Below, piece after piece: positions 986-62,400 of a stretch of DNA of 64,000 nucleotides; position 1 is the first letter of the stretch, and each line of letters opens with the position of its first letter. Origin of the DNA: Marsupella aquatica (Eukaryota > Plantae > Marchantiophyta); assembly GCA_973895155.1 (NCBI GenBank), contig OZ316893.1, positions 28,282,210 through 28,346,209 of the forward strand. The letters are read 5' to 3'. The notes beneath the pieces are model-generated. The model made no database searches and was not told where the DNA came from. It saw only the letters and a program-made list of their open reading frames with translations. The position numbers and the translations under genes are program-made.

Positions 986-986
986 A

Positions 987-2615: not shown

Positions 2616-2639
2616 ACTGTGGATCCAGTATGCATGGGA

Positions 2640-21369: not shown

Positions 21370-21504
21370 GTCCGAGTCCAACCTTTTTCGCAAGCAGAGG
21401 AACGAGTGAGTAAACTAACCATGTCGCAGCGTCTTGTCCAAATACTCAGTTTGGATAAGTAGAGCCGGTTAAGAAGGCTGACTGTTATTCCGTGACCATT
21501 GCAG

Positions 21505-27677: not shown

Positions 27678-29100
27678 TCTTCTCTCCCACTTTCACATGA
27701 TGTAGGTTTACATCATGTGTGAAAAAAACTAGGATACAACGTATGGATTTGATAAAAAAAAATCACCCCTGGTTTAGGGAACTAAAACAGAGCAGGTAAA
27801 TTTAGGCATGTACTTTGGCCAGTATTTGTCCATGCAATACCCAAAATGTTGGTCTCGTGAGGTTTAGGGTCTTTTCAGTACGTTCGGAGTCCTTCTGCCG
27901 GCGCGGGGCGCCTTCATGGGGTTCCCTGCCCGCTTTGTTGCTTGCTATGAGTAATAAAAGTACCCTCATTAATAAGAGTACCCTCGTGCACAAGGCCCAA
28001 CACAAGGGTACCCTTACGAGATAAGAATACCCTCACTAATAAGGGTACCCTCATTATCAAAGTACCATTGTTGATAAGCGTACCCATTGATAAGAGTACT
28101 CTTGTTGATATAAGAGTACCCTCATTGATAAGAGTACCCTCATACGCAAGGGTACCCTCAGGAAATAAGAGTATCCTCCTTGATAAGGGTACCCTCGTTG
28201 ATCAAAGTACCATTATTGATAAGCGTACCCATTGATAAGAGTACTCTTGCTGATATAAGAGTACCCTCATTGATAAGAGTACCCTCATACGCAAGGGTAC
28301 CCTCAGGAAATAAGAGTATCCTCCTTGATAAGGGTACCCTCGTTGATCAAAGTACCATTATTGATAAGCGTACCCATTGATAAGAGTACTCTTGCTGATA
28401 TAAGAGTACCCTCATTGATAAGAGTACCCTCATACGCAAGGGTACCCTCAGGAAATAAGAGTATCCTCATTGATAAGGGTACCCTCGTTGATCAAAGTAC
28501 CATTATTGATAAGCGTACCCATTGATAAGAGTACCCTCGCTGATAAGAGTATCCTCACTGATAAGAGTACCCTCAAGCACAAGGGTAGCCTCAGGAGATA
28601 AGAGTACCCCCATTCACACGGGGAGCAATGAAAATAGGGATAATTGTAACCACGTCCAAAAGGTGACATCTTTGATAGCCATTCGAAAACACTGTCCTTC
28701 AAAACCTTGAGGACTTTAGTTTAAGAACTTTTCTAACTAAAAGTTCAACTTGAATGTTTTCATAACAAAGAATCCAATAAAGTGTAAACTTCAATTTTAT
28801 GATGTCAATTTTTTTAGATCTTCCCACAATGTAGCAAACAAATCCACTGAATTTTTTTTCTTTTAATTCCAATTCAGTAAAAATTACAATTCCGGTCAAA
28901 TAGTACACGAACCATTTTAGATCTGAGTACCGAAATGCCGTAAGTTGTAATTTTTATCATTAGATTTATGAATAATTCAACATGTAGGTGGGAAGAAAGG
29001 GGGAATTTTGATGTTAAGGTACTCACCTTCATAAATCTACTATTGATTTGTCCCAAGGAGTGTACAGTTTTTTCCTTGGTCTCGCCTCAATATTTGTACA
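27678..29100 (+). repeat. Module D, copy 1 (palindrome + 18-bp satellite + TET 5' fragment)
   Basis: Direct repeat of 36167-37316 and of 63280-64000. Confidence 0.92.
27950..28612 (+). repeat. 18-bp minisatellite GATAAGAGTACCCTCATT with a 145-bp higher-order period
   Basis: Monomer read directly. Near-identical translated blocks start at 28180 and 28325 (145 bp apart). Confidence 0.92.
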
Positions 29101-29152
29101 ATGTTGGCATGAATGACACTGCACAGAACACTAAAAGGATTTAGTGTCTTGA
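28630..29152 (-). pseudogene. Truncated, degenerate 5' fragment of the TET/JBP-like gene
   Basis: KKIDIIKLKFTLYWILCYENI..LVRKVLKLKSSRF matches KKLDTIKLKFALHWILCHDNILELFVKKVLKLESSRF of the 56591-57955 ORF. The upstream intron and exon are also alignable to 57980-58260. Confidence 0.85.
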
Positions 29153-29976
29153 GGATGACCAAAAACAATGACAAGAAACCTGAAACTGAAACTCATTTCT
29201 CCAAGTGCATATAGAGCTTCATATCATTGGCAACAATAGTGCTTGAAGCCAACTTACTTTTGAATGAACTGTAAGGCAATATCTTGTGAAAGAGGGCGGA
29301 TAGCTTCCCAACTACTAAAGGAAGTAGATTTTGCACTCACAAAGTCATCCCAATGTCAACCAGATCCCCTTGTGCAATCTGAGAAACGTGGAGTATTCAA
29401 TAAAAAGTTCAAAGCAAAATTAGGGTTTATGTAATAAAACCATCATAAACTCAATATAATGAAATGTAACCATGTCCTTTGTGATCAATTCTGCAAACCC
29501 TTCTGTTTTTTAAATATCTACTAATTAAAAGGAAAGGATAATACACCAGAATTTACTTCAAAACTGTCAATCCTGTTCTCCTAACAATAAGAATGATAGG
29601 GAGGGAAAATGTCAACCTGGCCATACGCCCAAGTCAGGGTGTGAACTAAGCTTAATTTTCAGGATCCTGGAATTGTGGCCGGAGAGAGGCAGCTTGCTTC
29701 AGGCTTCTTCCTCATCAGCATAGCCAACACCACTAGGAGACCAACCTAGAGCAAGTACAGGTCGAGCTCCCTCTTTGTTTGTGTAGTTCAATGTTCTGAC
29801 CATTTTCAATGTACTGTGTTCCCTTGGGTTTGGATGATCTTCCCTTGGCAGAAATGAGTCACACTCCACAGTTACTCCATGCATAATGATTATTCACTTG
29901 CCCCTGGGGTTGGATGATCTTTGTGTGGGATAAATGCCCGGTTTGAGTTAACGGGCAAGTTTACATGTTGCCCTAC

Positions 29977-36166: not shown

Positions 36167-37316
36167 TCTTCTCTCCCACTTTCACATTATGTAGGTTTAC
36201 ATCATGTGTGAAAAAAACTAGGATACAATGTATGGATTTGATAAAAAAAATCACCCCTGGTTTAGGGAACTAATACAGAGCAGGTAAATTTAGGCATGTA
36301 CTTTGGCCAGTATTTGTCCATGCAATACCCAAAATGTTGGTCTAGTGAGGTTTAGGGTCTTTTCAGTATGTTCGGAGTCCTTCTGCCGGTGCGGGGCGCC
36401 TTCATGGGGTTCCCTGCCTGCTTTGTTGCTTGCTATGACTAATAAAATTACCCTCATTAATAAGAGTACCCTCATGCACAAGGCCCAACACAAGGGTACC
36501 CTTAGGAGATAAGAATACCCTCACTGATAAGGGTACCCTCATTATCAAAGTACCATTGTTGATAAGTGTACCCATTAATTGATAAGAGTACTCTTGCTGA
36601 TATAAGAGTATCCTCATTGATAAGAGTACTCTTGCTGATATAAGAGTATCCTCATTGATAAGAGTACCCTCATACGCAAGGGTACCCTCAGCAGATAAGA
36701 GTATCCTCATTGATAAGGGTACCCTTATTGATCAAAGTACCATTATTGATAAGCGTACCCATTGATAAGAGTACCCTCACTGATAAGAGTACCCTCAAGC
36801 ACAAGGGTACCCTCAAGAGATAAGAGTACCCTCATTCACACGGGGAGCAATGAAAATAGGGATAATTGTAACCACATCCAAATGGTGACATCTTTGATAG
36901 CCATTCAAAAACATTGTCCTTCAAAACCTTGAGGACTTTAGTTTAAGAACTTTTCTAACAAAAAGTTCAAGAATATTTCATAATAAAGAATCCAATAAAG
37001 TGTAAACTTCAATTTTATGGTGTCAATTTTTTTAGATCTTCCCACACTGTAGCAAACAATTTTCTCAAGATTTTAATTCTAATTCAGTAAAAATTATAAT
37101 TCTGGTCAAATAGTACACGAACCATTTCAGATCTGAGTACCAAAATGCAGTTGTAAGTTGTAATTTTTATCATTAGATTTATGAATATTTTAACATGTAC
37201 TAGGTGGGAAGAAAGGGGGAATTTTGATGTTAAGGTACTCACCTTCATAAATCTACTATTGATTTGTCCCAAGGAGTGTACAGTTCTTTCCTTGGTCTCG
37301 CCTCAATATTTGTACA
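36167..37316 (+). repeat. Module D, copy 2 (includes 18-bp satellite 36440-36835 and TET 5' fragment 36850-37316 on the minus strand)
   Basis: TCTTCTCTCCCACTTTCACAT... to ...CTCGCCTCAATATTTGTACA, collinear with 27678-29100. Confidence 0.92.
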
Positions 37317-38900: not shown

Positions 38901-39069
38901 TATTGTAATGGGCTCGTAGACTATTGTAAGAACCTGGGGAGCACGACCATTCTCATTGTCACCACAGTCTAGCATGACATTTGTCTACATATCAAACTGA
39001 TATCAAACCAAGATAGTGTGCCACCAGAGGTTTGGTGTACATGCCTACTAGTGGGAAGAAGGGACAACG

Positions 39070-42000: not shown

Positions 42001-42286
42001 GGTATTAATTGGTGTTTTTCTCTAAGAACAAGAGGTTTTCTAAGCCAAGGTTAATTTCAGGTTTGGACCAGGCAAGTGGAGTCGAATTCTTGCTGCCGAG
42101 GGTGCACACTTCATTGACCGGTCTGAAGTAAGTCTTCTACGGTTATATCCTGCTTTTTGTATTACTGTATTTACCCTTGCACACAAAACAAATTGCATGC
42201 TCATCTATCATGTTTTATTGACTTTGACACAGATTGATCTGAAAGACAAGTGGCGAAACCTTCAAACAAAAGATTTAAAGGATTAA
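39070..42286 (+). CDS. PMD/Athila-ORF-like domain + coiled coil + C-terminal telobox (TRF-like) Myb protein, 6 exons
   Basis: Exons 39070-40632, 40981-41137, 41325-41605, 41744-41940 (GC donor), 42061-42127, 42233-42286. The spliced C-terminus reads KRWSKEETNCLKQAVRRFGPGKWSRILAAEGAHFIDRSEIDLKDKWRNL (telobox signature LKDKWRN). Confidence 0.85.
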
Positions 42287-42647: not shown

Positions 42648-45600
42648 GTCCAACTGGCCAAGATTAAGAAAGGGCCTGTTAGTCTAGAGGACAGCTATTG
42701 AACTACATTTTGGAGATTAATTACATTCATTTGAAGATTTTTGGCTGATCTTTGAGAGAACTTAGTGTTATAAGTTGGTCTGGACACACATTCTTGGTTG
42801 TGTGCTTGTGCAACATTATTGTAAATAATGTGTTCCATGTCCTGATGTTCATTTAAGTTGAATACACAGTTTAAATTGAATGATGCAAGTCAGAGCAATG
42901 AACAAATTTGATCGGGAAGTGACATAGAAAGCCATAAACTTTTGTACTAGATCTCTTCGGATGAGAGTACCAAACAAGAGTGCCAATAGGGCGTGTCAAA
43001 ACACAGCCATAAGCCCTGTCCACTGTCAGTCCCTCTTTCAAATAGCCGTAAAACAAAGTTACGGGAATTTTAAGGGCAGAAGTTGATCAGGTACTTTGAC
43101 ACGTCCTGTAAGAACTAGTTATGGGGTAGAAAAGAATCTTAAGGATGGTGACAAAGTTGCAGGTGTCATCACCATCGCAGGCTGTCAATGAGTCTTCAAG
43201 AGAGATTTTTGGTCTTAGCAACAAAGTAAATGTAGTGGCAATCAAATCCAGAATAGAAAGCGTTGGCCAGAATCAGAACAGCAGAAATTTGGACGGCGCA
43301 TCGTCGTAACTTTTGCCACTGTGTTGAACCTAGGAATTTAATAACTTCTGAGACAATTGAGCGCCTCGAAACTATTTCGACAGGGGCGTAGTCACAATTC
43401 TGCACTCAAAGCTAAGAGAGACTCTGAAATTAAGCACTCAAAGCTAATAGAGACACCAACATTGAAGTACAGATGAGTAAAAAACAGTAGTTGTTCAATT
43501 GCGCTTGCACAGAGATTAGCATTTTAGTTTCATGTGATGTGCAATAGATTGTTACATGTGGGGATTTGTCACCAACATACTTCTAAAATCAAATCCATTG
43601 TTTGAAAGTCTGTTAAAATGAGCAAAGGACATCCAAGAGCAAGCAATTTCTATTCCCCGTAGAATCTCGGTTTCAGAACTGTTTGTTCTTTGTCAAAACT
43701 AAATTCATGTAATATGGAAGAACAAGTAGCAAACAATTAGAAGAATTCCTTGCTCGAGAGTGCCTGTAGAACAATTTTGGGAGACAACCATCCATCACCA
43801 CAATTCACAGCTCGATGTAGCAGCCATGTCGGTGAGCTTGCTCGCCGTCACCTATGCGGCTCTCATCATTAAATAAGATTGGAGGGAATCTCTTCCTCAC
43901 CCCAATAGTGCATTGACTACGAATTCAGGACAAACAGCAACGATATTGATGAATGTGGACCTAAGTGTGATGCCCAGATGGATTTCATCAAGAATTTCAG
44001 AGGAGCTGCCCAAATTCGTGAGTGGGGAAAATACACTCAGTTCACCCCTCATTCCATCATTGGGATCATCGTAGGGGCCACTTATGCCGGGTAGGCTTTG
44101 CACTAGTGACTAGTGCCGGGGCGACTTCTCTTAAAACAGATGGTCTTCACCCTACGGACATAAAACTTTATGATGTATGAGACTTGCGGGGCACCTTTGT
44201 AGGTACCCCATAAGAAGTTACTTCCAAGCCATAAAAGTGATTTATGTCCTAAGCTATAACTGAGTTACGGCTGGGCTTTGATGCCCTAATAGAGTCTAAA
44301 CAAGAGATTTCAGTATATGCATTAGAGTCTTACAGCTTGTTGTTTTGAGGAGATACCATAATATTTCAAATTTTAAAGATAGTGCATTGGAGCTAAAAGA
44401 GTATTTGGAATTAGTTCGTGGGCCCCCTAGTTACATTTTTTAGGCCTTGTTTGAGTATAATTAATGTATGTAATATTTACTCTAACTCAAGTTGTCAAAG
44501 GCTATTATTTATGGTCAAAATTTTTATGGTATCGTAGATTGTTATGATAAGATAATTTTACAAATTTTAGTGAAAATATAGGAGAAATTAATTACCTCAT
44601 CCAAAGTGATGTGATTTTTGCAATCTTCTGCATAATATATGACCAGGAAAATAAGGGCTTTTAGCTTGAGTTTTGAGAGTCTAATATGGTCCATAATGTT
44701 ATGCTAGCATACATTAAACTACTAATTGAGTAGAAATTAAGCTTTCTAGTACATATATTAAAATAAACAACTAATTGAGAGGAGTGGAATTATAACACAC
44801 TTCTTCATGAAACATATATTTGAGATATAATATAGTTATGAATAATATATAGTAGTGCAAACTATCTAAGTAATGAAAACTATTCTAGATTAGGTGGCTT
44901 GCGGAAAGATCCCCTAGATTGAGAGTCTATCCTTTGGTCATATAGTTTGTTCTTTTTTAGTTCAATCTCCTTTTTTATAAGTTGTGTGTAATGTGTGACC
45001 CCCTAATAGTGTTGCAAAGAGAGATAATAAAGCATAATTAATGATTAACAAGTCATGATTTATATATTAAAGTATTGTCTAAGTACAACTAGGTTAACTG
45101 TCAGAAACTTTTAACGGTTTGTACGTTGTGTGGGGTGTACCCAACTTCATGAGATATAGGACAAAAGGGTGGCCGACAAGAAAATGAACAGTGTCAGGAT
45201 TGTACCCTCTCCATTCAAGCGAATATCATCACAAGAGGGATTGTACCCTCAGTCTCCATTCAAGAGAAGAAGAGTCATCATTGCTTGGATACAGAAGGAA
45301 CTGGAACAAGGGAAGCTATTGCTCCAAGACATAGGAGGAAGAGGATTCAAGCACCATAAAAGGAAAGGCACTAAGACACTAAGACCACCGTCCGCTATTC
45401 AATTGACCGTGCCATTGTTGAAACCACTTCAATCTATGAGACCAACATGTTTGCCAAGTATATTAGAGTTTTCACAGTGCGAGCGCCCCATTGAAATCTT
45501 TAGGAAGGAAGGATGTTCCGAATGTTTGCGAAGTGGATAAGTTGACTGAACTACCTTCATTTGTAAAGATTTCACAATGACATCTCCAAATCAAACCCGA

Positions 45601-45685
45601 GTAGAGGTCCCTCCAGCCAAAAATAAACAACCTCGATCAACTCCAGAAGAAAGATTGAGGAACTCAATCTCTGAGGTGGCTTTCA

Positions 45686-48600
45686 TTGAAGAATACAAAG
45701 AGATATTTGAAAGGGCTCGATGCTATGGGCTTGTCCGAATTGATAGGTTTGTATCAATTGATCGTGCTTGTCAGCTTTTACAAAGATATTGTGGATGTCA
45801 ATTTTGCAGATACTGGAGTGTTTATCACATACAGAGCACAAGCCTACCGCATCCCCAACAAGGAATTAGCGACTTTGTTTGGGATTTTCGCCCCAGACAG
45901 CCTACCAGCTGACTATCCAATTGAGGCACTTACGGGAAGAGAGATGAGTGCCTTCCTAAAACAAGGAGGAGAGCTCCAGCATGAGAAGAAGGTCCAATAT
46001 GGCGTTATGACAAACCAAGAGGTCCGCAAGTATGTGGAGTTCTTTACTAAATGGGTAATCCTCAAGAGTGGGTACCATTATGTAACGCCAGAGCAACTAT
46101 CAGTTGCCAAGAGAGTATTAGATGGAACTCTTCACCCATTGCTGATATGGAAGCGCAACCTTGCAAGTGTTATAACCAGGAAGGGGCTACCATTGTTTCC
46201 GTCAATTTGTGCATATGTATTAAGCGTAGTGATGGACCACGCCCTCACTGCCGATAGGATCACAACCGCGGTCACAATAATCTCCTTGCAGGACAGCGAT
46301 TCAGAGGAGCGAGAGGAGGCAAACCAGGAGGAAGAAGAAAAGGAGGAGTCGGAGAGCGAGGATGGGGAAGAAGATAATCCGAGACTCTATGCCCCAAATG
46401 GATCCCTGGTCTCGGGCCTGGTCTCAAGCAGTGCAGATGAAGTGGACAATTCTGATGAAGAAGGCGCACAAGGATTACGCACATTGAGGATAAAGGGGAA
46501 TGCGTGTGTTAAGTCCTTGAAAAGAAAGAAAAGGAGAGTGATAATCCCGGTCGAAGAGGAAGAAGAAGCTATGACATCCACTGCCCAATCTGATTATGTA
46601 TACCATCAACCAGTGTTGACAGAGTTGTTATCAAATGTTGTTCTGTCTGAACTCACCTCCTTTGAGCAGAGGATGAAGTTTATTAATCGACCCTTCCCTG
46701 TAGGAAGTGACAAGCGTTTGTGGTTACATCAAGCCAAGGAAGTGTGCGGGTTGGCCCACATTTGTGCACTCGAAGCAGAAACTGGGGTAAGAGAGAGAGA
46801 AAAGGCAAAGCAGCAGGAAGAAGATCTGTTCATAAGTGCCAACACCAACCTTAAGCTCCAAGAGAGGATTGAGAAGTTGGAGAGTTTGCTGAAGGAAAAC
46901 AAGGAGATGGTGAGACTCCTCAATGAGAAGGTGGAGATACGAGAACAAATGTTGCATGAGCAGGAGATGAAGTCCCAAGAAAAAGAGGCAAGGATTACTT
47001 TGCTGATAGAGGAAGTGACAACTGTCCGGAAGGAAGCAGAGAAGCAACACGCTCAGAATACCACAAAGGCAGAAGAATTGAGTCGGTATGTAGCTGCCTT
47101 TGAAGAAGAGGGCAGAGAGTTGAATGCACAATTGAAGGAGGCCCAAAAAGCGAGCAAGGAGGCTTCAGGCCAATATGAAGAAGAAAAGGAGAAGCGGCTG
47201 CAATTAGAAGATGAATTTGCTAAAGTGCGCCATACTCACTCTCAATGTGCAGGTCATACCTCTCAGATGATAACAGTGATAGAGAAGTCGCTAAAAGAAA
47301 CTACCCAGCAGCTCACACTGACTTTTGAAGCGTTACAAAAGTTGGAGCAGCAAAACCTGGAGAGGGTGGAGTATATCCGAACATTGGAATTAAGTGCCAA
47401 GCAGAGAGAGAAGGAGAGAAAGAAGTGGTTGGGTGAAATAGCCCAGCGAGAGTTGGTGCAATGTAATTCTAAGGATGTTCGGATACCACGACATGCTTAT
47501 GATGCTTGGGAACTTCGAGTGCAAGAGTTGAGAGATGAAGCAAAGAAAGCCACCAAGTTATTGGATGGGGCTTTGAAAGACCCAATAAACAAACAACGAG
47601 TTGAGATCCTGAAAAAGATCAGCATCAACCACTGGACCACAATGTCTGGAGAGCAGAGTGATGGCTGGCATCCGATTGAGGTTGATGAAGCCCTCGGACT
47701 AGAAACCCTTCGGATAATTTTGGCCAGTGCAGAGGTAAATAAAAGGGACATCAGACCTGGAGATTGGGATCAGATTTGGGATGAAGTCCCCATAAGGATT
47801 AGATTCATGCTGCCTTTTTTTGAGTGGTCTGGACATATTAATGTACAATTACCTGAGGATTTGTCTTATAGATTAGGAGGTCGGGCTAACAGTCGAATAG
47901 CTCAATTCATGCTGTCGGAATTAGAAAGGGAGCATCCTCAAAATGAAACTTTTATTGCACTTAAAGCAATGGCTAATATGGTTCATGAGGGATTAGCACA
48001 GAGGGATAACCAGAGAAAATGTTGTCTAGATGTTTATAGTAAGTTATATGAGTTGTTGCCCTTGATATTGAAAACGTGGGCTGCTCGGGAAGTACGGATC
48101 AATTGTGGGAAGTATACACTTCCCCGACTCATCACATTTTTGGAGGCTGCCCAGTGGAAGAAGATGGAGAGGGACGGGGTTACTGTCGCATTCAACCCAT
48201 TTTTCACCTCTGACATAGTAGTATCTGATGATTGGATGAGTTTCAATCTACCAATTGCACCTGAGCTTAGTCACTTGGCAATGAGGTTCTTTTATGAATT
48301 GAGGCGTGACCCAGCGGTGGTGGCTCGTCAAGGGGGTTACTTTAGAAATGATGTATACCCCTTTAACCCCGAAGATGTATCTTTGGTTCACTTGGAGAAA
48401 AGTAGTTATTGGGAAGCAGTGACTCCCACGGAAGTAGTTATTACATGGTTAGAGCTAGGTGTGTATAATTATAATATTGGGAAGTACTTTGGTCCCGCTT
48501 TGCTTTGGGGATATCATGATCCACCACAGGATTACCAAGTGCAAGAGGGAGATCAAATAGAAGGACAGGATGGAATAGCTGTTATGTACGAAGCGACCCC

Positions 48601-49315
48601 CACTTACTTTTCTATCTGGCAGCACCATCCAAGTATCCGGATACTAATGACACCTAGTTACAGGAAAAATCAGCAGATAAGTTTTTTGGAGCAGATCGAG
48701 AAATGGTTGTGGAGTGTCCATCACATTGAAACATACAACAACATGCTCAAGGATCCTCGGTATTTCAAATGGTACTGCTTCACAAGAACATTATACGAAG
48801 TTGTGGGAAGGTCAGGCAAGAAAGCAGATGTCCGCATCTCAGTTACTGGAGAGATGGAGGATGGTGGTCTAGATTTGTGGAAATTATTTAGTCGAGCAGG
48901 GCCTTCGGCTGCTAGGATGTACAATTTGATGGTGGCAGCTGGGTTTCTGAAAGGTGAGCTGCCTATGTTAAGATGGGGAAGTGCTGCAGGTGTCAGTAAG
49001 TCCTACCTCATTACTCAATCCCTAGAAGAAGGGGACATTGATGATGAATTACAACTTTCAGACAAGCGAGGACCTGGTGTGTATAAACTGTACAATGAGG
49101 AAGGTATTATGGTCGAGGAAACCCCCGGACAGAGAGAGGAGAGACAAATGGCATTTAGGAATGACATGAGTAAGAGAAGATGGGCTCAGTGTCATGCAAG
49201 ACAAGAGCAAGTAGATGAAGACCGGGAAGCTCGATATGCTGCACTTGATCAAAGGGACAACACGACCTCGGAGCGAATTCACTTTGATATGTTTACTGAT
49301 TACAATTACAGTTAG
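45686..49315 (+). CDS. 1209-aa TE-associated protein: PMD/Athila-ORF-like N-terminus, acidic linker, coiled coil, unassigned globular C-terminal half
   Basis: Long intronless ORF with LDAMGLSEL...YRIPNKELATLFGI, an E/D-rich tract and E/K/Q heptads. The start codon is uncertain (TTG; an overlapping ORF begins at 45577). Confidence 0.7.
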   Translation: MKNTKRYLKGLDAMGLSELIGLYQLIVLVSFYKDIVDVNFADTGVFITYRAQAYRIPNKELATLFGIFAPDSLPADYPIEALTGREMSAFLKQGGELQHEKKVQYGVMTNQEVRKYVEFFTKWVILKSGYHYVTPEQLSVAKRVLDGTLHPLLIWKRNLASVITRKGLPLFPSICAYVLSVVMDHALTADRITTAVTIISLQDSDSEEREEANQEEEEKEESESEDGEEDNPRLYAPNGSLVSGLVSSSADEVDNSDEEGAQGLRTLRIKGNACVKSLKRKKRRVIIPVEEEEEAMTSTAQSDYVYHQPVLTELLSNVVLSELTSFEQRMKFINRPFPVGSDKRLWLHQAKEVCGLAHICALEAETGVREREKAKQQEEDLFISANTNLKLQERIEKLESLLKENKEMVRLLNEKVEIREQMLHEQEMKSQEKEARITLLIEEVTTVRKEAEKQHAQNTTKAEELSRYVAAFEEEGRELNAQLKEAQKASKEASGQYEEEKEKRLQLEDEFAKVRHTHSQCAGHTSQMITVIEKSLKETTQQLTLTFEALQKLEQQNLERVEYIRTLELSAKQREKERKKWLGEIAQRELVQCNSKDVRIPRHAYDAWELRVQELRDEAKKATKLLDGALKDPINKQRVEILKKISINHWTTMSGEQSDGWHPIEVDEALGLETLRIILASAEVNKRDIRPGDWDQIWDEVPIRIRFMLPFFEWSGHINVQLPEDLSYRLGGRANSRIAQFMLSELEREHPQNETFIALKAMANMVHEGLAQRDNQRKCCLDVYSKLYELLPLILKTWAAREVRINCGKYTLPRLITFLEAAQWKKMERDGVTVAFNPFFTSDIVVSDDWMSFNLPIAPELSHLAMRFFYELRRDPAVVARQGGYFRNDVYPFNPEDVSLVHLEKSSYWEAVTPTEVVITWLELGVYNYNIGKYFGPALLWGYHDPPQDYQVQEGDQIEGQDGIAVMYEATPTYFSIWQHHPSIRILMTPSYRKNQQISFLEQIEKWLWSVHHIETYNNMLKDPRYFKWYCFTRTLYEVVGRSGKKADVRISVTGEMEDGGLDLWKLFSRAGPSAARMYNLMVAAGFLKGELPMLRWGSAAGVSKSYLITQSLEEGDIDDELQLSDKRGPGVYKLYNEEGIMVEETPGQREERQMAFRNDMSKRRWAQCHARQEQVDEDREARYAALDQRDNTTSERIHFDMFTDYNYS

Positions 49316-49924
49316 ATAAGAATCAAAGTCAAAATCTGTACATGTGGAGTTCCCAGGGGATTCTAATGAATAAAGCTGTGAGATATATATGCCCGTATAT
49401 ATGATGATGCCCATTGTATTCATTTCACCCTAAATTCAATTTATCTTTGCATTAGTTGTTTTTTTTCTTATTATTTATCTCTGTTTGGTTTCTATCCATT
49501 ATTACCATAGAAGAGTCACTTTTCTTTCTATTCTAAAACTTGGAATTTCAACTTGGAAGCGACTATTTGTGTATGAGTAGTTTTCCTGCTCCCCACTAGT
49601 TTCTCAGCTCTATTGATTTCATCTATCTCCATAGGGCCTACTTCTATGTCTACTGTCTCTGAAATTGAGAATTGGACCTCCCTGATGAGTGTTTGTCTAT
49701 TTACGTACCTAGAGATGTCTCAAGTGAAGTTAGTTTAGGATCTCATGGTTTAGAGGTAGAGGGCTCCCCTTAACATGCTACAAGAGAACTTTGCTTAGTT
49801 TAGGGACAAAATCAAAGGCACTGGTGATTGCTTAGGAGACCTCAAAGCTTGTGCATCCCAATGGTTCTAGTCTAACAAATGTGAACTTCTGACAAGATTC
49901 ACCTTGCCCAATGCCCGTGCATCT

Positions 49925-51264
49925 TACCCGGGCCAGAGAATCAGCATAATCTTTCTGATGAATTCCCAGATGAGCATTTGTGGCACATTGAAGGAGAGTC
50001 TTCACGGTATTTCGATATTGTGCACATGTTGATTCATGGTAGTTTTCCTGAAGGCCTTAATGCGGAAGAACGAGCTGTTTTTGCACATAAGGTGGGACCT
50101 TATACTATCCTCCAGGGCACTTTGTTTAAAGAAGGTCCTGATCAGAAGATGCGATGATGTCTGGAGAACAGGGAACTCCCACAAGTAATTGAAGCTTTAC
50201 ATTCTGGAGAAACACGTGGCCATTATGCTGTCAATACTACTGTAAAGAAAATTTTGGATGATGGGTACTGGTGGCCTACCATGCATAGAGATACTTACAA
50301 CTTTATTAAGACGTGTGACCCCTGTCAAAGAATAGGGAAACCCACTGCTAGTTCCAAATGGCCTCTTACGCCCATCCTGCCTTTGACACCATTTGAGAAA
50401 TGGGGTATTGATTTTATTGGCCCAATTTCACCAGCAGCTTGAAAAAGCCGAAGTAAATACATTATTTTGGCCACTGATTATGCCACCAAATGGGTGGAGG
50501 CTAAAGCCACTCGCAAGAATGATGCTACAACAACTGCTGCATTTCTCTTTGAGCACATTATTACTCGGTTCGGGTGTCCTTTGGAGTTGGTAAGCGATAG
50601 GGGTTTGCATTTTCTTAACTCAACTATTGAGTTAATTACTAACACATATCTTATCAAGCATCGCAAAACTACTCCTTACAACCCCAGAGCTAATGGCTTA
50701 ACGGAAAGAGCTAATGGCATTGTGGGCAAGATCCTGAATAAGATAGTAGAGTCTCACAAGACAGACTGGGATGTGAAGTTACATTCTGCATTATGGGCTT
50801 ACCGTACTGCCGAGAAAATTACAACCCTTCACACTCCCTTCTACCCGACTTATGGCCTGGACAGTATTATTCCTATTGAATTCTCCTTCCCGACAGAACG
50901 ACTCTTGGTATCCAACCGTCTCTCTCCAACGGCTAGTCTCCCACATAGGTTTTATGATATTGTCAAATTAGAAGAAGTTAGACTTTTAGCGTTAGACCAT
51001 ACAGCTACAATTCAGAACAAGCGTAAGCTTGTTTATGATCAAAAGCTGCGAGTCATGAATTTAGATGTTGGTGATTTAGCATTAGTCTTTGATTCCTGTT
51101 ATATGTTATTTCCTGGGAAACTCCATACCCATTGGATTGGTCCTTATCGAGTTACCCAAATCTGGGATAACGGTTCGGTTTCCTTGACTACCTTAGATGG
51201 TCACCCACTTGACACCCGAATCAATGGATTCTGGGTTAAGCGATATCATGAGTCTCCTATTTAG
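49925..51264 (+). pseudogene. Ty3/Gypsy integrase relic (5'-truncated pol)
   Basis: DEFPDEHL, H..GH Zn finger, GYWWPTMHRD..CDPCQR, WGIDFIGPI, DYATKWVEA, VSDRGLHF, NGLTERAN, WIGPYRV. Two in-frame TGA stops at about 50155 and 50440. No chromodomain. Confidence 0.93.
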
Positions 51265-51414
51265 TGTTTCACCTGGGACAGGTCATAGTTTCAGTGGAGG
51301 GCGGTAGGTAGTTTGTACTTTATTAGAATCAGCATTCCCTCCCCCTTCACAAGTGTTCGGAATTTTAGTTTTTGCACTGGACGCTGAGAGAAGCGTCCAC
51401 CCTAAAACTTAGTC

Positions 51415-53892
51415 TTGACGGGACGCTGCAAGAAGCGTCCACTTCTAGGAACGGCAAGAGAAGCGTCCTTTACGATTGACGCGATGGTGGAGTCCAAACT
51501 TACGACGCGACCAATACTCGCAATTATCCCATCGAATATGGTGGACCGCCGACAATTGAGGACAAATCTTGCATTGATGGGCTTGAAGAAATTACTTCGT
51601 TTCCCTTGGAGGATGTGCGAGTTCAGCCTCATCGACCAAGGTGTGTGGGACGCTGAGGAAGGAATCGGTGTCCGCTCGCGTCCAAGTGTTTGGACTGAAG
51701 CGCTCATAGCGGGAGTCTACTCGACGCCGACAACGGGCGAGGATTTGCAGAGGATTGATGGAGAGCCCCGAGCTTATATAGAGTCTTTCTTTGCTCCTGA
51801 ATCCTTTAAGAGGCGAAATGGTTGGGTAACCATGGACTATTTAGTTACCTCTTTGCAGCATCTTTTTCGATTTCTGTCACCAATTTTCTATCCAGAGAGT
51901 CAGACACGTATTACTCTTTCTTTCGCTGCCACCGTTATCTCTTCATTAGAACAGAAGCAGACCATCAATTGGACGAAGATCTTATATAGGGTAATTCATA
52001 CCCAGGTAAAGAACTTTCGTAGCAGGTTGCAAGCTGGAAAGTTGAGATTTACCAACTTGACTCCCTATCTAGCTCACATTTATCACAAGCATAAATGTCT
52101 GCTCCTTTCAGAGAAAGTTTTCTATCGTACCCATTGGAGCGCATCTACCTGTGAAGCAAATGAGTTGCCGGAAGTACGAGAAGTCCGATCCAGTTCAACA
52201 CTGGTGGCGTTATGCGAACTACTCACTTGCGAAGAATCTGAGCTGGTAAATGAAGTTTGGAGACTGAAAGAGACAAGAGAACCAGTTGGCGGGAGAGACG
52301 AGCCAATTCTTTCCCACCCATCAGAGGATCAAGATCTTGATCAGGACAATTTTGCTTTCAGAGCGAATGACGAAGACAGGATGGATGTGGATGAAGAAAG
52401 CTTACCAGGAGAACCTCCTCAACAATATACTACTGCAGCGGATGGGTATGATAAAACTTCACAGAACCCTGCTTCACCACCCATGGAAGTGAGTAATAAT
52501 GCTTTAAAAGCTTTACAGGAGTATAATTCGGAAGATTCTCGTAGTCCCTCCCCAAACCTAGATGTGGTTCCTCTTGTACAACAATCAATGGAACCTCCGG
52601 CGGTATTATGCCCAGAGCTTGTAAAGTTGTTTAAGGCTGATTCAGAGGACGAAATAGTAGATGTAGAAGGAGTAGCTGGACAACCAACTTCACCTAATTT
52701 TGTCATGCCATTTCCTATGTGGCCGACCCCCGAAACCAGGATAACAGTTGCTCTGATTATGTCTGAGGAGTTAGCAGAAGCATTGGCGAGAAAAGGGCCT
52801 CCTCCACACCCATCTGTTGATTGGGTTTCTCCAGCTTACCTTCCAGAAGAGAGATTACTTGAGTCTCAACACAGTCTACAGACCACTCCATCTCTCGGAC
52901 CTTCAAGCAATTTAGGGCTACCTGAGACCAAGAGTGTATCTCCACCCATACCTCTGTCTGGAACACCTGATTTGGCATTTAGCTCTGCATCAGCTTCTAT
53001 CTTACTGGATTCAAGCAGAGATAAGGGTACTCGGATATCACTTGGAGATGAGAGTTCACTTATTACCGAGCAATTTCAAGTGACATATACTCGAAGACCT
53101 GGGAAAAGGTTGCGTCGTGTAAGAAATCAACAGATCTTTCATGAATCAAATTCACCAGATTTTGAGCAGCTGAAGCCCATCAACACGACAATGGGGAATT
53201 CTTCTCCACCTCCTGCATCTTCATCTCCTGTTGTACTATCACATTGGCCTACTAAGGAGTCGGTGATACCTTCTTCAAACCCAGACATTATTTTTCGTTG
53301 GAAAGGAGCTCCAAGCGATGGAGAGGAAGACGAAGATCCTCGTATTATCAGAGTACCTCCCAAACTTGGGCACACAGTGGTACTACCATCCCTAATTCCT
53401 ATACCTAACCTTGCTTCAATTCATAAGTGGGAGAAGAATGATTTTCGGATAGCTTTCCGACATCTGGAAATGGAGAGTATACATCAACAACAACAGATTT
53501 TACCTGGTACGTATCTACCGAGTATTCGAATGTTGATTCCCACTTATAAGCCGGGTAAGGCTATTCCTCCCATTGATAAGGGTAGAAGATATAAATTTTC
53601 GGAATATGAAATTTGGTGTTGGGTATATGTCCTCCGACGTGCTGAAGCTCCTTTTCCGCCAATAACTCCAGAATTTCCTTGGCCATACCAATACTCTGTT
53701 TGGGTCTGCCATGAAGGGTATGCTGTTCCGCATAAGTATGAGAAAGAGCTTGTTAAGCTACGAGAACAGTTGATACGGAATAAGGCTATGAACTCTTCTG
53801 CTCAAAGGTATAAGTCACTTAGGAGACTAGTAAGGTTACCTACTCCTCCTTCGTGGCCGGACGTTGTCACTCAAGGGTTGTTGAGTAGATAG
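51415..53892 (+). CDS. Extra ORF downstream of integrase (Athila/Tat-type extra ORF, PMD-like N-terminus, disordered middle)
   Basis: 825-aa open frame directly 3' of the integrase with LALMGLKKLLRFPW...INWTKILY...LTPYLAHIY. Confidence 0.7.
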   Translation: MTGRCKKRPLLGTAREASFTIDAMVESKLTTRPILAIIPSNMVDRRQLRTNLALMGLKKLLRFPWRMCEFSLIDQGVWDAEEGIGVRSRPSVWTEALIAGVYSTPTTGEDLQRIDGEPRAYIESFFAPESFKRRNGWVTMDYLVTSLQHLFRFLSPIFYPESQTRITLSFAATVISSLEQKQTINWTKILYRVIHTQVKNFRSRLQAGKLRFTNLTPYLAHIYHKHKCLLLSEKVFYRTHWSASTCEANELPEVREVRSSSTLVALCELLTCEESELVNEVWRLKETREPVGGRDEPILSHPSEDQDLDQDNFAFRANDEDRMDVDEESLPGEPPQQYTTAADGYDKTSQNPASPPMEVSNNALKALQEYNSEDSRSPSPNLDVVPLVQQSMEPPAVLCPELVKLFKADSEDEIVDVEGVAGQPTSPNFVMPFPMWPTPETRITVALIMSEELAEALARKGPPPHPSVDWVSPAYLPEERLLESQHSLQTTPSLGPSSNLGLPETKSVSPPIPLSGTPDLAFSSASASILLDSSRDKGTRISLGDESSLITEQFQVTYTRRPGKRLRRVRNQQIFHESNSPDFEQLKPINTTMGNSSPPPASSSPVVLSHWPTKESVIPSSNPDIIFRWKGAPSDGEEDEDPRIIRVPPKLGHTVVLPSLIPIPNLASIHKWEKNDFRIAFRHLEMESIHQQQQILPGTYLPSIRMLIPTYKPGKAIPPIDKGRRYKFSEYEIWCWVYVLRRAEAPFPPITPEFPWPYQYSVWVCHEGYAVPHKYEKELVKLREQLIRNKAMNSSAQRYKSLRRLVRLPTPPSWPDVVTQGLLSR

Positions 53893-56590: not shown

Positions 56591-57955
56591 TTAATGTTTT
56601 TTTCGTAAAAGTCTATCTAATTTTTTGTTTATGGTAACAGCTCCTACGTATATAGGATTTGATGTTGGAATTCTATATCCTGTGCCATGGACAACGTCAC
56701 TACGAAATGAAAATAAATTACCATCTCTAATAGGTAATAATATTCCATACTCTGGAATAACAAAATTTCCAGGAGAAATTTTGGCATCAGGATGACTAAC
56801 ATAACATAAAGTAAATTCTGCTGTATCATGATCAGCGTGAGTTTCTACACAATAATCTTTACTAATATATAATTGATAAGCACTAGGACCTTTACATTTT
56901 AGTGCTTTATCAAATATGTTCATCTTATAATCATTTGAATGTAAGTAAGGATGAGAATAATCTAAAAAACTGTCTAACATTTGTGGACATAACCACATGT
57001 ACAGTCCAAGAATAATATCGATTAACTCTCGATGAGAATATTTATTTACCATGTCTTCAAAATTGGCTGCATCAGGACAATCTTGATTGAAGAATGTCTT
57101 TATCTTTTGTTCATGGGTATAAAAAGATACACAACTTTGATCTTTTTTGTAAGGATTATGAAAAGGACCAAACCCCGTCATCTTACTTTCCCATGATCTT
57201 TTTCCTTTCCCTCTTTGGATAACATGATGGGCAGCATGTAATTGTTCTAATAATCTTCGAATGAAGACCATTGAATCAGGTGATAGGATATCTTGATGGA
57301 ATATCATTGCTATCAGATATGGGTTGACTCCAGACCTATCAAAAAGATAAGTAAACCCTTTCTTTTCTTCTATGATAATAAGGTCTGATGGAAATTTTAA
57401 GAAACTAAAGTTTGGATCAGAGGTAAATGTTGTTGTAGTTTGATCCCAATCACCTAAAATTACACCAGTAAGTGTTTTTAGTTTTGAAGAGGAAATACGT
57501 TGAACGTCTACTTCAACTTTGGCATAAGTTCCTCCACTTCTACAAAGATTATCTCTTTCTTTTTGAAAAAGTTTAAGCTTTCTAATGTTAAGATTAGAAA
57601 ACATGGAAATTGATTTTTTCAAAGGTTGAGGTAATTTTAGTCTGAAACCATGATGAAGAAAGATGTCATCAATTTCAATGAACACCTCAGGAGGAAAGAT
57701 CTGAATGATATGGCTTCTACAATTTTGATACCCATTCAAGAATAGTGTTCTTGAAAATCTTGAAGACTCTAGTTTAAGAACTTTTTTAACAAAAAGTTCA
57801 AGAATGTTGTCGTGACATAGAATCCAATGAAGTGCAAACTTCAATTTTATGGTATCTAATTTTTTAAGGTCTTCCCACACTGTAGCAAATACATCCACAG
57901 AAAAATCTTCCCCCAATTCTTTTTTTCTCAAAGTATTACGCTTTCTTTTTCCCAT
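56591..57955 (-). CDS. TET/JBP-like 2OG-Fe(II) dioxygenase (454 aa, possibly with an upstream exon at about 58135-58224)
   Basis: C-terminal double-stranded beta-helix pattern: YISKDYCVETHADHD (HxD at about 56839-56831), GNFVIPEYGILL, FSFRSDVVHGT (distal His at about 56688). Upstream KMTGFG motif. An acceptor GGCAG lies directly before the ATG, and an open 90-nt exon ending in a GTGAG donor lies upstream. Confidence 0.75.
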   Translation of the reverse strand: MGKRKRNTLRKKELGEDFSVDVFATVWEDLKKLDTIKLKFALHWILCHDNILELFVKKVLKLESSRFSRTLFLNGYQNCRSHIIQIFPPEVFIEIDDIFLHHGFRLKLPQPLKKSISMFSNLNIRKLKLFQKERDNLCRSGGTYAKVEVDVQRISSSKLKTLTGVILGDWDQTTTTFTSDPNFSFLKFPSDLIIIEEKKGFTYLFDRSGVNPYLIAMIFHQDILSPDSMVFIRRLLEQLHAAHHVIQRGKGKRSWESKMTGFGPFHNPYKKDQSCVSFYTHEQKIKTFFNQDCPDAANFEDMVNKYSHRELIDIILGLYMWLCPQMLDSFLDYSHPYLHSNDYKMNIFDKALKCKGPSAYQLYISKDYCVETHADHDTAEFTLCYVSHPDAKISPGNFVIPEYGILLPIRDGNLFSFRSDVVHGTGYRIPTSNPIYVGAVTINKKLDRLLRKKH

Positions 57956-58614
57956 CTGCCATGTAAGAACAAATAATTTATTTAGTAAAAATTACAATTC
58001 CGGTCAAATAGTACACGAACCATTTAAGATCTGAGTACCGAAATGCCGTAAGTTGTAACTTTTGTCATTGGATTTACAAACCATTTAAGATTTAGGAGGA
58101 CAGAAAGGAATAAATTTGATGTTTAGGTACTCACCTTCCCAAAGGTACTGATTTGTCCAAAGTAGTTGTCACTTCTTTTCTTGGGTCTGGCTTCAATATT
58201 GTACAAATGTTGACATGAATGATACTGCACAGAATACAAAAAGGAGATAGTGTCTTGAGTATTGTTTTGTGATAACACATATAAAGTATGTTATAAATGA
58301 AGGACTACCCATTGAATCAGAATCAAGAACTTATACAAATTAAGAATTTGTCATCCGTTAAAAAAGCCTTAAATACTTCATAGACACATAATAATAAGTT
58401 TATAATTTTATTAATTTTCAAAATGATTGCTCAGTCTGAAGAGATCATGGAAGGCTTAAGATAAGTTTTTAGTGGCATGTACCTAGCCACATGTAAGCAC
58501 AAGATAACTGTTGCCTAATATCTCAATGGCCCTTCTCATCAAAAATGAACTCTCTGCAATCTCCAAACAATACATCCACATTAGGGGCACTATGCCAACC
58601 CACTTTGTTCAGCT

Positions 58615-59295
58615 TCAAAGCCAAGATATGTGATCTCTGATAGGAATGCGCAAAATAGGATCAATTGGATGGCGATGACAATAAAATATCCATCGATCAA
58701 CGCCATGTGCAGAGTGATCATAGATTTCTCTATCACAAGCATAGCCTTCTGCTTGAAGGTCCTTCAAGCAATGAAAATGCCACATTGTGGGACATCTAAC
58801 ACAATGGACTATGTCTGTCCAATACTCATCATCATGCTCACCACATGCCTTGCATGTATGAACTGGGCAAACTGTGGCATGAGTAGGCAAACATGACAAA
58901 CAATAAAATCTCATGCAAAATTTGTCAGGGCATTTCCTAACAACTGGTCCAGCATCAGCAAAGGTCTCATAAGACCCCAACTTCCCACACTGTGCACACT
59001 TAGCTTGCTTCTCTACACAATCAGTGCACATCCAGGCTCCCTCGTGTGCAGAGGGGAGGCCCACCCCTGGACAGTTGTTCTCTACGGCAAGGTTAGACTC
59101 AGGGTTTAGGTGGAAATGTCTCATGCATTGGCCATCACAGATAACCAAGCCCCCACCATCATCACAAATGGCACAACAATGAGCTGCCTTCTGGTACACT
59201 TGACTCTTGGAGAACTTTTCACAATCTGTCCCAAACACCTGCGTGTTGCTCACCTCTGTCTTAGGCTTCTTGGCCTTCTGCTTGTTACGTGCCAT
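58615..59295 (-). CDS. Stand-alone EDM2/NSD-type composite PHD finger protein (226 aa)
   Basis: CAICDDGGGLVICDGQCMRHFH, C..C..KCAQCGKLGS, CPVHTCKAC, CVRCPTMWHFHCL, IFYCHRHPIDPILRIPIRDHI follow the EDM2 PHD cassette (CAICDNGG...CPLHKC...CRRCP..YH..CL...IYC..H.ID..L..P.RDH). No EDM2 C-terminal domain. Confidence 0.85.
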   Translation of the reverse strand: MARNKQKAKKPKTEVSNTQVFGTDCEKFSKSQVYQKAAHCCAICDDGGGLVICDGQCMRHFHLNPESNLAVENNCPGVGLPSAHEGAWMCTDCVEKQAKCAQCGKLGSYETFADAGPVVRKCPDKFCMRFYCLSCLPTHATVCPVHTCKACGEHDDEYWTDIVHCVRCPTMWHFHCLKDLQAEGYACDREIYDHSAHGVDRWIFYCHRHPIDPILRIPIRDHISWL

Positions 59296-59497
59296 GCCTA
59301 CAAATCAATAAGACATTGCAGTTTAGTTGACATACTGGAAAGACATTTGCTGTAATTGGAATGAATTGGAAGTGTCACTGTGTATAGGATGGACACCAGC
59401 CCTACCTTCAGTTTGGTGAGTCCACGCAGAGATCTGACCTACTACTACAATTGCTCACCCTACACCTCAATTCTGTGTTCACATGAAAAGCCAAAAG

Positions 59498-62400
59498 AAC
59501 TGTATATATCTTCTCTGCACAGCGCGTGCAATGAGGCCGGTCTTCAGGCCATTTCAGGGTATTTAGGGACCGCGGTGCATGGTCTCCTACATGCAGTGCA
59601 CGGTCTCAACGTTTCATTATTTGGACTCCCACAACATTATTATTAAAACCTTTAAACTCCACTAGTATTGATTAGGGTGACTTACGGGTGGTTGCCGTAG
59701 GCTCCCATAACATTATTTTTTAAGTGTTCATACACCACTAGCATTCATTGTGACTCACTTGTAGTCCCGCACTCCCATAACATTTCCAATAAATGTCTTT
59801 TGCAGCTATAACATTCATGTTGAAACCATTGGACTCCGTTAGCATCAAAAGTGTCACCATTCAATTTGGGATCGTGAGAAATACAAAGGAAACAAAGCTT
59901 GGTCAATGCTTCTAGAATTCTTGTACCAGCCTTCAATCTGGTTCCTTAATGTGCTCGTCACCTTCAAATTCCCTTCTGCATTATTGTTGGGTCGGTATTT
60001 TGGTCGGGAAGCATTGGCCTTCGAGAATTCCTGTCGCTGGCCTTCAATCTGGTCCTGACTGTGCTCGCCACCTCCAAATTCCCTTCAATCTGCATCTTGA
60101 ATCTTGCATCGCTTGGATGGCGTACTGACATCGTCAATAATTGCAGCAAGTGATGGATTAGAGTCATTCACTGTCGGATGCAGTCTTCGAGCGAAGGCAT
60201 TTCTGAATGGTTGCATTTTTTATGCTTACTGGTGGCAGTGGCGTGGCGTGGTTTCAGGCTGAGTGTGCAGTGATGGAGCTTCTCTTCTGTACAACATCCA
60301 TGGTTGCGGTATCCATGCCTTGCTACTCACCTCCATCTGTGTTGCAACTCCATTCAGACACTCCTAGGACCCAAATCGCCTTCACTGTCCAACCCACCAT
60401 ACAACACTCTTATGTAAAGGCTGTGTCTCACATGCGATACATGGTATGTCTCCAAGTTTCAGCATATGGACTCCCACAACATTTCCGGTTAAAGTGGAGG
60501 CTCCCATAACATTTCCGGTTAAACCGTAGACTCCCATAGCTTTCATGTTGAAACCTTTAAACTCCGTTAGCATCAAATGTGTCACCATTCAATTTTGGAC
60601 GTGGGAAATGAGATACAAAATTTTGGACGTGGGAAATGCCCATGTGCTCAGATGGGTATGTATGTTTCAAATTACAGTATTTTGAAGGTTGGGGGTTACG
60701 AGGGATGGGGTATTCCAAAACGCACAGCCACCATGTGTTGGGGTAATGCAAGTGCCAATGTGCTCCGAAGGGTATGTATGTATCAAATTACAGTATTTTG
60801 AAGGTTGGGGGTATGAGGGATGGGGTATTCTAAAATGCACAGCCACCATGGGCTGGGGTAATGCAAATTAATGCCCATGTGCTCTGAAGGGTATTAATAG
60901 GATAATGTCCTGGTTAGAGGGCATTGTGGGATATAATGCCCGTAACTAGGACATTTAATGTACGTAAAAACTTGAGTGACTTTTTGGTAACAAACAAGAA
61001 AAAGTGAATCCCTGAAATAGAAAATTCAAATTAAAGGGTCATCCAAGAAGTGGTTGCTATGGAATTGGCCAAAAATATACCTTCTTTAGTTATATTAGAT
61101 TCTATTCATAGATATTGTGTTAGTATCAGGTAGGTGTTTTGTATAATCCCCTCCTCAAAAAAAGGGGTGCATTATGGAGAATTAATGCACTCAAATATAC
61201 AAAGAGAAAAGCCACGAAAGTCTTTACGTATCAAAATTACAGTATTGAAGGTGAAGGGGGGTACGTGGGATGGGGGTATTCTATAACGCACAGCCACAGT
61301 TGAAGCCACTTTGATAAGTGATTACTCAGTTGAACAATAGGAGAGCAATGCTGCTCTAAGTGGAATGTCTTATTTTGTTTACGAGTGGAATGTCTTGTTT
61401 TGTGGACTACCGTAAACAGACATGTTCATTAATGAAGAAATGCGGTGCTGGTCAGACTGTCCTCACTGTTGTTTTTATAAAGTGGGATGAGAAGCTATTG
61501 ACAAACCACATCATCACTGACCACACACACTCTTACTGTATAATAATCAGAAGTACTCACTGTACTGTCCAGTAGTCTGCGTTTTTGGATTAGTTGTGAT
61601 GATTTCTGTTCAGTCTGCTACTATAAGGAGGTTGAATGGGCAACCTTCCAGTATGGGTGAAGGTTTTTTCGGGAACAAACAGGCACAGCAGGGTAGTATG
61701 GTTGAATTGCCTAATCTATCTTGTTGTGGGCATTGTATTGCACCTCGCGCTAACCCTTGGTACACTCTTAATCTTAAAAGGTGTTCATCTGTAAAGGCCA
61801 AGTATTCTGATAAACCCACACAACACTATTGAAAGAAAAGGAACAAGGTTTAGGGTTTAGAGTATTCTGAGAAAACCACACACTGTTGACACTGTTTACA
61901 TGATAAATGGCCATTGTCAGTAAGAGATACAAAAGTTGAGGTCATGTAATGCGGTATTATGGTTCATATTATTTAGGAAATTGGGCCATATACGTGGATA
62001 TCATGCACAAGCTAGGGTAATCTAATAATCGAGTAATGTACAACTAAGGTTAATGTTAGGAATACATCCGAACCTCGGGGTAATCCAATCACAAAGCAAT
62101 GTACTAGACAAGTTAATCTTAGGATATTGTGCCATACACACGGATACGAAAGTTGGGGTAATCTTATCCATCAATAAATATACATTAATTAATGTTTAGG
62201 ATTTGTGCCATACACATGAATACAAAAGCCGGGGTAATCTTATAATCAATAAAGTACTAGTAAGGTTAATGTTTGGAAATTGGCCACACCCATGGATACA
62301 AAGCTGGGGTAATCCTACACATAGATACGAAGCAAATGCCGGGGTAATCTAATAATCATAATTAAAGTACAAATGAATGTATTAAGGAATGTACTAAGCT

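Follow-up and report, generated by a model that had tools for sequence, protein, structure and literature searches.

The window analysed here is a stretch of 64,000 nucleotides (nt) from the liverwort Marsupella aquatica (assembly GCA_973895155.1, contig OZ316893.1, positions 28,282,210 to 28,346,209). It is plant-type nuclear DNA, rich in repeats, and consists of nested repeats and gene fragments. Two neighbouring open reading frames (ORFs) on its minus strand are the subject of this work, one for a protein made of EDM2-type PHD fingers and the other, downstream of it, for a predicted dioxygenase of the TET/JBP fold (Table 1). Both ORFs are open in the window.

A first-pass annotation of this DNA had described them as a tandem pair of a PHD reader and a TET-like eraser beside the terminus of a repeated backbone. 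Its layout was re-measured exactly: the genes are co-oriented, with 390 base pairs (bp) from the PHD stop to the exon upstream of TET, and the PHD ATG lies 202 bp from the start of the repeat unit called module A. The acceptor AG sites placed by the two start codons also stand, directly before the ATG for TET and two bases 5' of it, ending at 59298, for PHD. All splice sites are predicted from sequence only.

Table 1. Features of the PHD–TET locus and related pieces in the window
Feature	Position	Strand	Remarks
TET/JBP-fold dioxygenase ORF	56591..57955	-	454 amino acids (aa), single coding exon; ATG 57955, stop ends 56591
Predicted intron	57956..58134	-	179 nt; GT donor, AG acceptor ends at 57956, immediately 5' of the TET ATG
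Predicted exon	58135..58224	-	90 nt; open in the TET frame, contains a 7-codon upstream ORF
Spacer, PHD stop to 90-nt exon	58225..58614	-	390 bp; candidate donor 58482, AATAAA 58412
EDM2-type PHD-only ORF	58615..59295	-	226 aa; ATG 59295, stop TGA 58617-58615; basic N-terminus and three zinc-finger units, the last C4HC2H
Predicted intron in the 5' untranslated region of the PHD gene	59298..59405	-	108 nt; sequence only
Module A	59498..60619	.	End of a separate high-copy element
Decayed TET 5' fragment	28671..29156	-	Retains exon, intron and about 60 codons, but not the acceptor and ATG (deleted); upstream PHD absent
Second decayed TET 5' fragment	36893..37316	-	Acceptor and ATG deleted; upstream PHD absent

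The TET-Fold Protein

The sequence of the 454-aa protein, in which there is no zinc finger, gives few clues to its family. A Pfam scan at the curated cut-off was blank, including Tet_JBP and 2OG-FeII_Oxy_6, PDB sequence searches with the protein or its profile returned nothing useful, and a search of metagenomes for the TET locus found nothing. HMMER detected 47 relatives at E ≤ 0.001, many of which appear truncated or degenerate, the best full-length relative being 38% identical. The window protein was aligned with 42 of the 47, five weak or short ones being excluded, and weak Pfam matches are present among the 43 aligned rows (PF20515 in 5 and PF12851 in 2, with best E of 0.0014 and 0.00029). 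The protein has fungal clusters as Atlas neighbours, among them one in which 15% of the members carry PF20515, and its Atlas recognition score of 1773 is under the strong range.

The AlphaFold model (pLDDT 85.4, pTM 0.89) is more informative. In a re-scoring of the top 1000 Foldseek chains, rather than a full search, ranks 1–16 are all TET2, CMD1, CcTET or NgTET1 (Z 17.5 to 13.8, root-mean-square deviation about 4). The best match reaches Z 17.5 with a deviation of 4.1 over 258 aligned residues, and the first AlkB-type chain appears only at Z 11.5, which bears out the designation of the gene as TET-like. The individual scores are 17.5 for human TET2 (7ne3), 15.7 for CMD1 of Chlamydomonas (7cy8), 15.4 for CcTET of Coprinopsis (7w5p) and 13.9 for NgTET1 of Naegleria (5cg8). 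These matches cover residues 133–454; the window protein is only 6–14% identical to the four enzymes and, unlike them, has an extra helical N-terminal part (1–132). The predicted iron triad HxD..H is well kept in the rows that cover it (H373 in 28/30, D375 in 29/31 and H423 in 22/22). At the level of modelled fold and predicted triad, the protein is TET/JBP-like.

In TET2 and NgTET1, 2-oxoglutarate is held by two arginines (PMC7854593). R248 of the window protein, kept in 17/18 rows, is matched by position only to TET2 R1261, the arginine for the C1 carboxyl. The last core strand (436–441) has neither Arg nor Lys, and the counterpart of TET2 R1896, the arginine for the C5 carboxyl, is absent; column 436 holds Tyr in 13/20 rows and Arg in none, the distant relative P0041 alone having an Arg, two columns off. 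R428, conserved in 15/20 rows, might stand in for the missing residue. In CMD1 the second Arg points away and its function is lost, which goes with the use of ascorbate instead of 2-oxoglutarate (PMC7854593). Since the strand Arg is missing, the chemistry of the window protein may be non-canonical, and the "eraser" role of the first-pass annotation can only be inferred.

The PHD-Only Protein

The 226-aa protein matches three NSD-type PHD models, PF23011, PF22908 and PF23004, in this order and with scores under the cut-offs, and its top Atlas cluster is Streptophyta. A scan of metagenomes with the PHD sequence recovered one EDM2-like cDNA (L001) and one chance match (L002), and a search of viral contigs found nothing. 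The L001 record (295-4212) is from a metagenome and probably represents a plant transcript; it holds a full-length intronless EDM2-like ORF of 1294 aa with a DNMT1-RFD domain and the PHD cassette, and its protein was used as a sequence stand-in for EDM2. Residues 40–225 of the window protein, including the C-terminal tail, align with the L001 cassette at E 3e-18 and 29% identity (hhalign 99.5%), in agreement with the EDM2-type assignment made at first pass. The alignment with NSD2 reaches only about residue 177, the E-values of the two comparisons not being comparable. By these alignments, plant EDM2 is the closer match of the cassette and animal NSD the more distant one.

The order of the PHD units, the C4HC2H last unit and the C-terminal tail are shared with Arabidopsis EDM2 and EDM2-like proteins, for which L001 stands in (PMC7529245, PMC3776765). 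The C4HC2H last unit, defined for EDM2 and NSD1 (PMC3776765), is represented by C148, C151, C165, C168, H173, C176, C206 and H209, all invariant in the window protein and its three stand-alone relatives. These relatives are 226, 220 and 245 aa long and 78, 73 and 56% identical to it; all four proteins end at the same motif and three of the four stop at the identical residue. Across them, 30/37 Cys/His positions are invariant versus 67/152 other residues, and the TET-linked copy of the window keeps all aligned zinc ligands. In contrast to EDM2, the members of this 220–245 aa family consist of PHD units only: the window protein has no RFD, no acidic leader or other acidic regions and no methyltransferase-like ELP domain. 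From its sequence, it is an EDM2-type cassette severed from the remainder of EDM2.

An acidic cluster ahead of the first Cys is typical of PHD fingers that bind the unmodified H3 tail, such as H3K4-unmodified readers (PMC3241642). This cluster is present in the EDM2-like L001 protein and absent before the first Cys of finger 1 in 4/4 PHD-only proteins; the comparison covers finger 1, the structural model from the four sequences having a pLDDT of 31.8. Because the cluster is missing, the reading of dimethylated lysine 9 of histone H3 (H3K9me2) is, on this sequence evidence, not transferable from EDM2 to the PHD-only protein, and the first-pass view of it as an H3K9me2 reader is not sustained.

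Linkage, Copy Depth and Constraint

Linkage was followed in contigs, probably of DNA, from four public runs (X1–X4) of two organisms. The join between the PHD stop and the spacer is bridged in all four runs, and in both organisms, by contigs with 22–34 differences from the window (about 85% alike), and joints connecting the spacer, the 90-nt exon and the TET intron are present in X2, X3 and X4. Depth was taken as the median at selected variant rows, with zero-depth and repeated rows left out; contig depth is not copy number, and the ratios serve as a hint. Relative to TET, and in the order X1 to X4, the spacer stands at 1.1, 1.2, 1.3 and 0.8, the PHD 5' end at 0.9, 1.4, 1.8 and 1.2, the PHD core at 50, 38, 25 and 18, and the 3' flank of the window at 1.6, 1.0, 0.1 and 0.1 (organism B, 0.1).

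The deep PHD contigs depart from the window 7–9 bases past the PHD stop (58606–58608), and in X4 other flanks begin just past the TET stop (loose end 56586). The hint is strengthened by the equal depth pattern of the four runs, which agrees with these loose ends. A PHD core 18- to 50-fold deeper than TET and followed by another 3' flank suggests a large family of PHD genes that stand alone. The ratios hint at a one-way linkage, in which one PHD subfamily stays upstream of the TET copies and most PHD copies are solitary, and also at a multicopy PHD–TET unit in organism B. The suggestion that the pair is linked in other copies thus holds for diverged copies in two organisms, but not for most PHD look-alikes, which seem to be without TET. 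As a separate observation, the PHD-only family seems to be extremely abundant in X1–X4 over 58614-59205, where it is deeper than the module A end in three of the four runs and has its own 3' flank.

Variants were counted in the 40 rows with the best support out of 442 and out of 176, so the omega estimates are crude. Among 30 PHD variants, 13 are silent (expected fraction 0.20–0.28) and 17 are replacements, with no change at a zinc ligand and no stop (rough omega 0.33–0.50, p 0.003–0.049). TET shows 8 silent and 9 replacement variants (rough omega 0.29–0.46, p 0.012–0.087). The conserved zinc ligands and the excess of silent changes disfavour neutral decay of the PHD sequence, in keeping with the first-pass expectation. 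Both proteins have basic N-termini, which could be nuclear signals.

Predicted Transcripts

The donor of the 90-nt exon is identical in the two decayed paralog fragments of the window, with an acceptor AG at the equal place, beyond chance. In the TET frame the exon is free of stops, as are 11% of random draws, and it shows three silent changes relative to the paralog. Its 7-codon upstream ORF has the same stop in all three copies (the window gene and the two fragments). Three relatives, P0007, P0035 and P0042, retain the TET Met at the start of the exon, and P0042, a distant one, has a Phe-Gln stretch ahead of the same Met. The conserved upstream ORF and the conserved Met argue for the 90-nt sequence being a leader exon.

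As the 90-nt exon has an acceptor, an upstream donor is needed. When the 87 GT sites from 59520 to 58225 were ranked with an approximate weight table, the top four were 58482, 59238, 59253 and 59405. The first lies 133 nt beyond the PHD stop and the last belongs to the PHD leader; 59238 and 59253 are in phase 0, at PHD codons 19 and 14, and splicing from them would give open proteins of 498 or 503 aa that bypass the zinc fingers. The TET mRNA would probably start in or before the PHD gene, since the good donor candidates all lie in that gene or at most 135 bp past its stop. An AATAAA at 58412 falls inside the intron opened by any of the four. No intron-skipping joint was found in the four contig sets, which are probably DNA.

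None of these transcript models yields a PHD–TET fusion. Longer PHD-fused proteins were absent among 62 candidates, which is weak evidence, and a PHD profile run against 56 proteins matched only the four PHD proteins, with no PHD–TET fusion. A read-through by frameshift along the roughly 35 open codons past the PHD stop was considered and rejected, the family ending at the same motif in 4/4 proteins. Co-transcription, raised in the first-pass annotation, is permitted by the layout; the spliced fusion raised with it was not found, and the PHD stop is at the same residue in three of the four proteins.

Module A and the Backbone

Module A has copies at 11340-12589 and 59498-60619 that are 95% identical. 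At 59502 the depth jumps 3- to 28-fold, nine X4 contigs depart at 59500 into unlike flanks (agreement 0.45), and two X1 contigs extend the PHD side beyond 59501 into different sequence. Given the depth jump and the many flanks, module A is where an element with numerous insertion sites ends, and the PHD–TET pair lies outside that end; some PHD-side copies at least are without module A. The position beside a backbone terminus, as first described, is correct as to nearness, the pair being outside and not inside the end, and its proximity seems to reflect an insertion or junction of its own.

The window holds no inverted counterpart to the module A end, and a scan of its ORFs gave no domain of a DNA transposase. 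Helitrons carry a 3' hairpin followed by CTRR; at the module A end there are three small hairpins (z -1.25), and the minus strand reads CAG before T. The repeated backbone occurs two to three times in the window and comprises module A, tandem repeats of 116 bp and of 18 bp, and a decayed TET 5' piece. The carriage of TET fragments in the backbone suggests a long association, possibly with repeated capture. The deletion of acceptor and ATG seen in the decayed fragments also appears as skips of 76–77 nt in X2 and X3. Both fragments adjoin 18-bp repeat arrays of the backbone and are cut at one identical point, which reappears as a loose end at 57727 in run X3.

Proposed Role of the Pair and Rival Explanations

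The explanation preferred here, tentatively and at somewhat less than even confidence, is that PHD and TET form a two-gene anti-silencing cargo of mobile DNA, probably served by one promoter. The TET-fold protein would modify 5-methylcytosine (5mC) on repeat DNA; the modified base would be left uncopied by maintenance methyltransferases, methylation would be lost and the element would remain expressible, a course already suggested for fungal transposons with TET. Alongside it, the PHD protein derived from EDM2 would likely serve as a general chromatin-binding decoy and not as a dedicated guide. TET would travel with one PHD subfamily, next to a far larger PHD-only family without TET, and the two proteins would be alternative outputs of one promoter with no fusion. 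Module A would be the end of a neighbouring element and not a boundary of the cassette. In fungi the anti-silencing role of TET-bearing transposons is a proposal unproven by experiment (Kojima 2025, PMC12730594), and human TET is able to demethylate Arabidopsis DNA (PMC9368846).

Several observations weigh against a joint anti-silencing cargo. No transposase or pair of termini enclosing PHD–TET was found in the window, no contig spans both genes among the matches listed (32 of 1549 and 32 of 1203 pieces), and both decayed TET fragments are without an upstream PHD. The GC content is 46% in PHD and 32% in TET, a sharp difference from which separate origins follow. Most of the PHD variants stem from the deep family that stands alone and not from TET-linked copies, and the TET omega is non-significant when transitions are weighted (p 0.06–0.09). 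In X3 and X4 the TET frame has one inserted nucleotide at 57790, which may stem from the decayed-fragment family that overlaps there. The conserved TET Met fits an independent start, and the lack of an Arg on the last core strand in 20/20 aligned rows means that 5mC hydroxylation is not assured.

A rival explanation is that the two genes are accidental neighbours, a member of the abundant PHD-only mobile family having landed once upstream of TET, with the block then copied passively and TET borrowing at most a promoter. The very different base composition, the large solo PHD family, the TET fragments without PHD and the make-up of the window, with its nested repeats and pieces of genes, all fit such an accident. 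It is nevertheless rather unlikely: the PHD–spacer join persists in contigs only about 85% alike from two organisms, both window ORFs are still open, and the TET-linked PHD retains all its aligned zinc ligands. TET copies that seem to keep a PHD upstream at about 1:1, with both genes under apparent constraint, would suit a direct guide, in which PHD binds H3K9me2 chromatin, as EDM2 does (PMC7529245), and recruits the dioxygenase through contact, the basic N-termini of both proteins being possible nuclear signals. However, the depth of the PHD core and its other 3' flank at 58606–58608 mean that most PHD copies would be without TET in cis, which speaks against the guide function suggested at first pass. 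The acidic cluster found before Cys1 in the EDM2-like protein (rule of PMC3241642) is missing in 4/4 PHD-only proteins, and no PHD–TET fusion was found among the proteins searched; a direct guide is improbable. To the same degree improbable is a domesticated host pair, a low-copy plant TET-like gene by which the host controls methylation and near which repeats have simply accumulated. The X2 depth, equal for TET and its 3' flank (ratio 1.0), and the diverse family of 47 relatives are in its favour, but the unit exceeds the shared flank about 10-fold in depth in X3 and X4, with other 3' flanks right after the stop (56586), decayed TET pieces ride in the repeated backbone, and many relatives seem truncated or degenerate.

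A more specific form of the anti-silencing cargo, offered as a long shot, concerns the AATAAA within the candidate introns. EDM2 promotes full-length IBM1 mRNA by suppressing intronic polyadenylation (PMC7529245). By analogy, one promoter might give either the PHD decoy, through polyadenylation at the intronic AATAAA, or the TET-fold enzyme, through read-through and splicing to the 90-nt exon. Such an EDM2/IBM1-like switch would make this a plant mobile element with its own methylation-sensing feedback loop, assembled from a captured part of EDM2 and from an enzyme which, without the usual 2-oxoglutarate Arg, might write a base so far not known from land plants.

Other Genes of the Window

A host ALDH7 gene of the antiquitin type lies at 8480-10643 (+); it bears introns, carries an Aldedh domain and has 4pxn and antiquitins as best PDB matches, and the first module A copy begins about 700 bp past its stop. 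Inside the backbone, at 18505-24058 (+), a 954-aa coiled-coil ORF with seven 189-bp repeats is followed by a spliced SNF2 helicase gene with a RING-like part. An open ORF of 1659 aa at 31008-35987 (+) combines an OrsD/DUF3505-type domain with a RecQ-type helicase. Its central part, which has no Pfam match, carries tyrosine-recombinase-like motifs, and the protein resembles fungal telomere-linked helicases; it could be the enzyme that mobilises the backbone.

Between the backbone repeats and the Gypsy-type region, a spliced gene at 39052-42286 (+) ends in a Myb-like domain (weak Pfam match) and might be another chromatin-type cargo. Gypsy-type pieces of the window include reverse transcriptase, RNase H and integrase. 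At 45160-53892 (+), two long ORFs (1218 and 828 aa) without Pfam match stand on either side of the Gypsy integrase piece, and a repeat search of the window found no pair of long terminal repeats of at least 150 bp there.

Relation to Known Systems and Significance

TET-bearing transposons in fungi and VANC anti-silencing in Arabidopsis are already known. The fungal TET/JBP transposons (KDZ, hAT, EnSpm, Plavaka, Helitron and others; PMC12730594) share with the window a TET/JBP-fold dioxygenase with the HxD..H triad in multicopy, repeat-rich DNA. They differ from it in that the window has a plant-type host, no enclosing transposase or termini, a PHD partner upstream and no Pfam match. The word PHD is absent from the main text of that article (PMC12730594), whose supplementary transposon tables could hold PHD-bearing elements. 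The VANDAL elements of Arabidopsis are likewise plant mobile DNA with non-coding parts rich in tandem repeats and a gene, VANC, proposed to undo their own methylation (PMC10398659, PMC13317346). VANC belongs to MuDR elements and binds them in a sequence-specific way, whereas the candidate of the window is an enzyme with a PHD protein, and no MuDR transposase was seen among the ORFs scanned. A PHD–TET pair in plants is not reported in the open-access literature searched, subscription papers being outside that scope.

With an open, multicopy TET-fold gene in a plant-type genome, it can be tested directly whether 5mC is oxidised by plants or by their transposons, and the missing strand Arg raises the chance of a CMD1-like chemistry. 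The conserved and seemingly very abundant family of EDM2-derived PHD-only proteins would, in turn, be a candidate means of countering the host complex in charge of heterochromatic introns.

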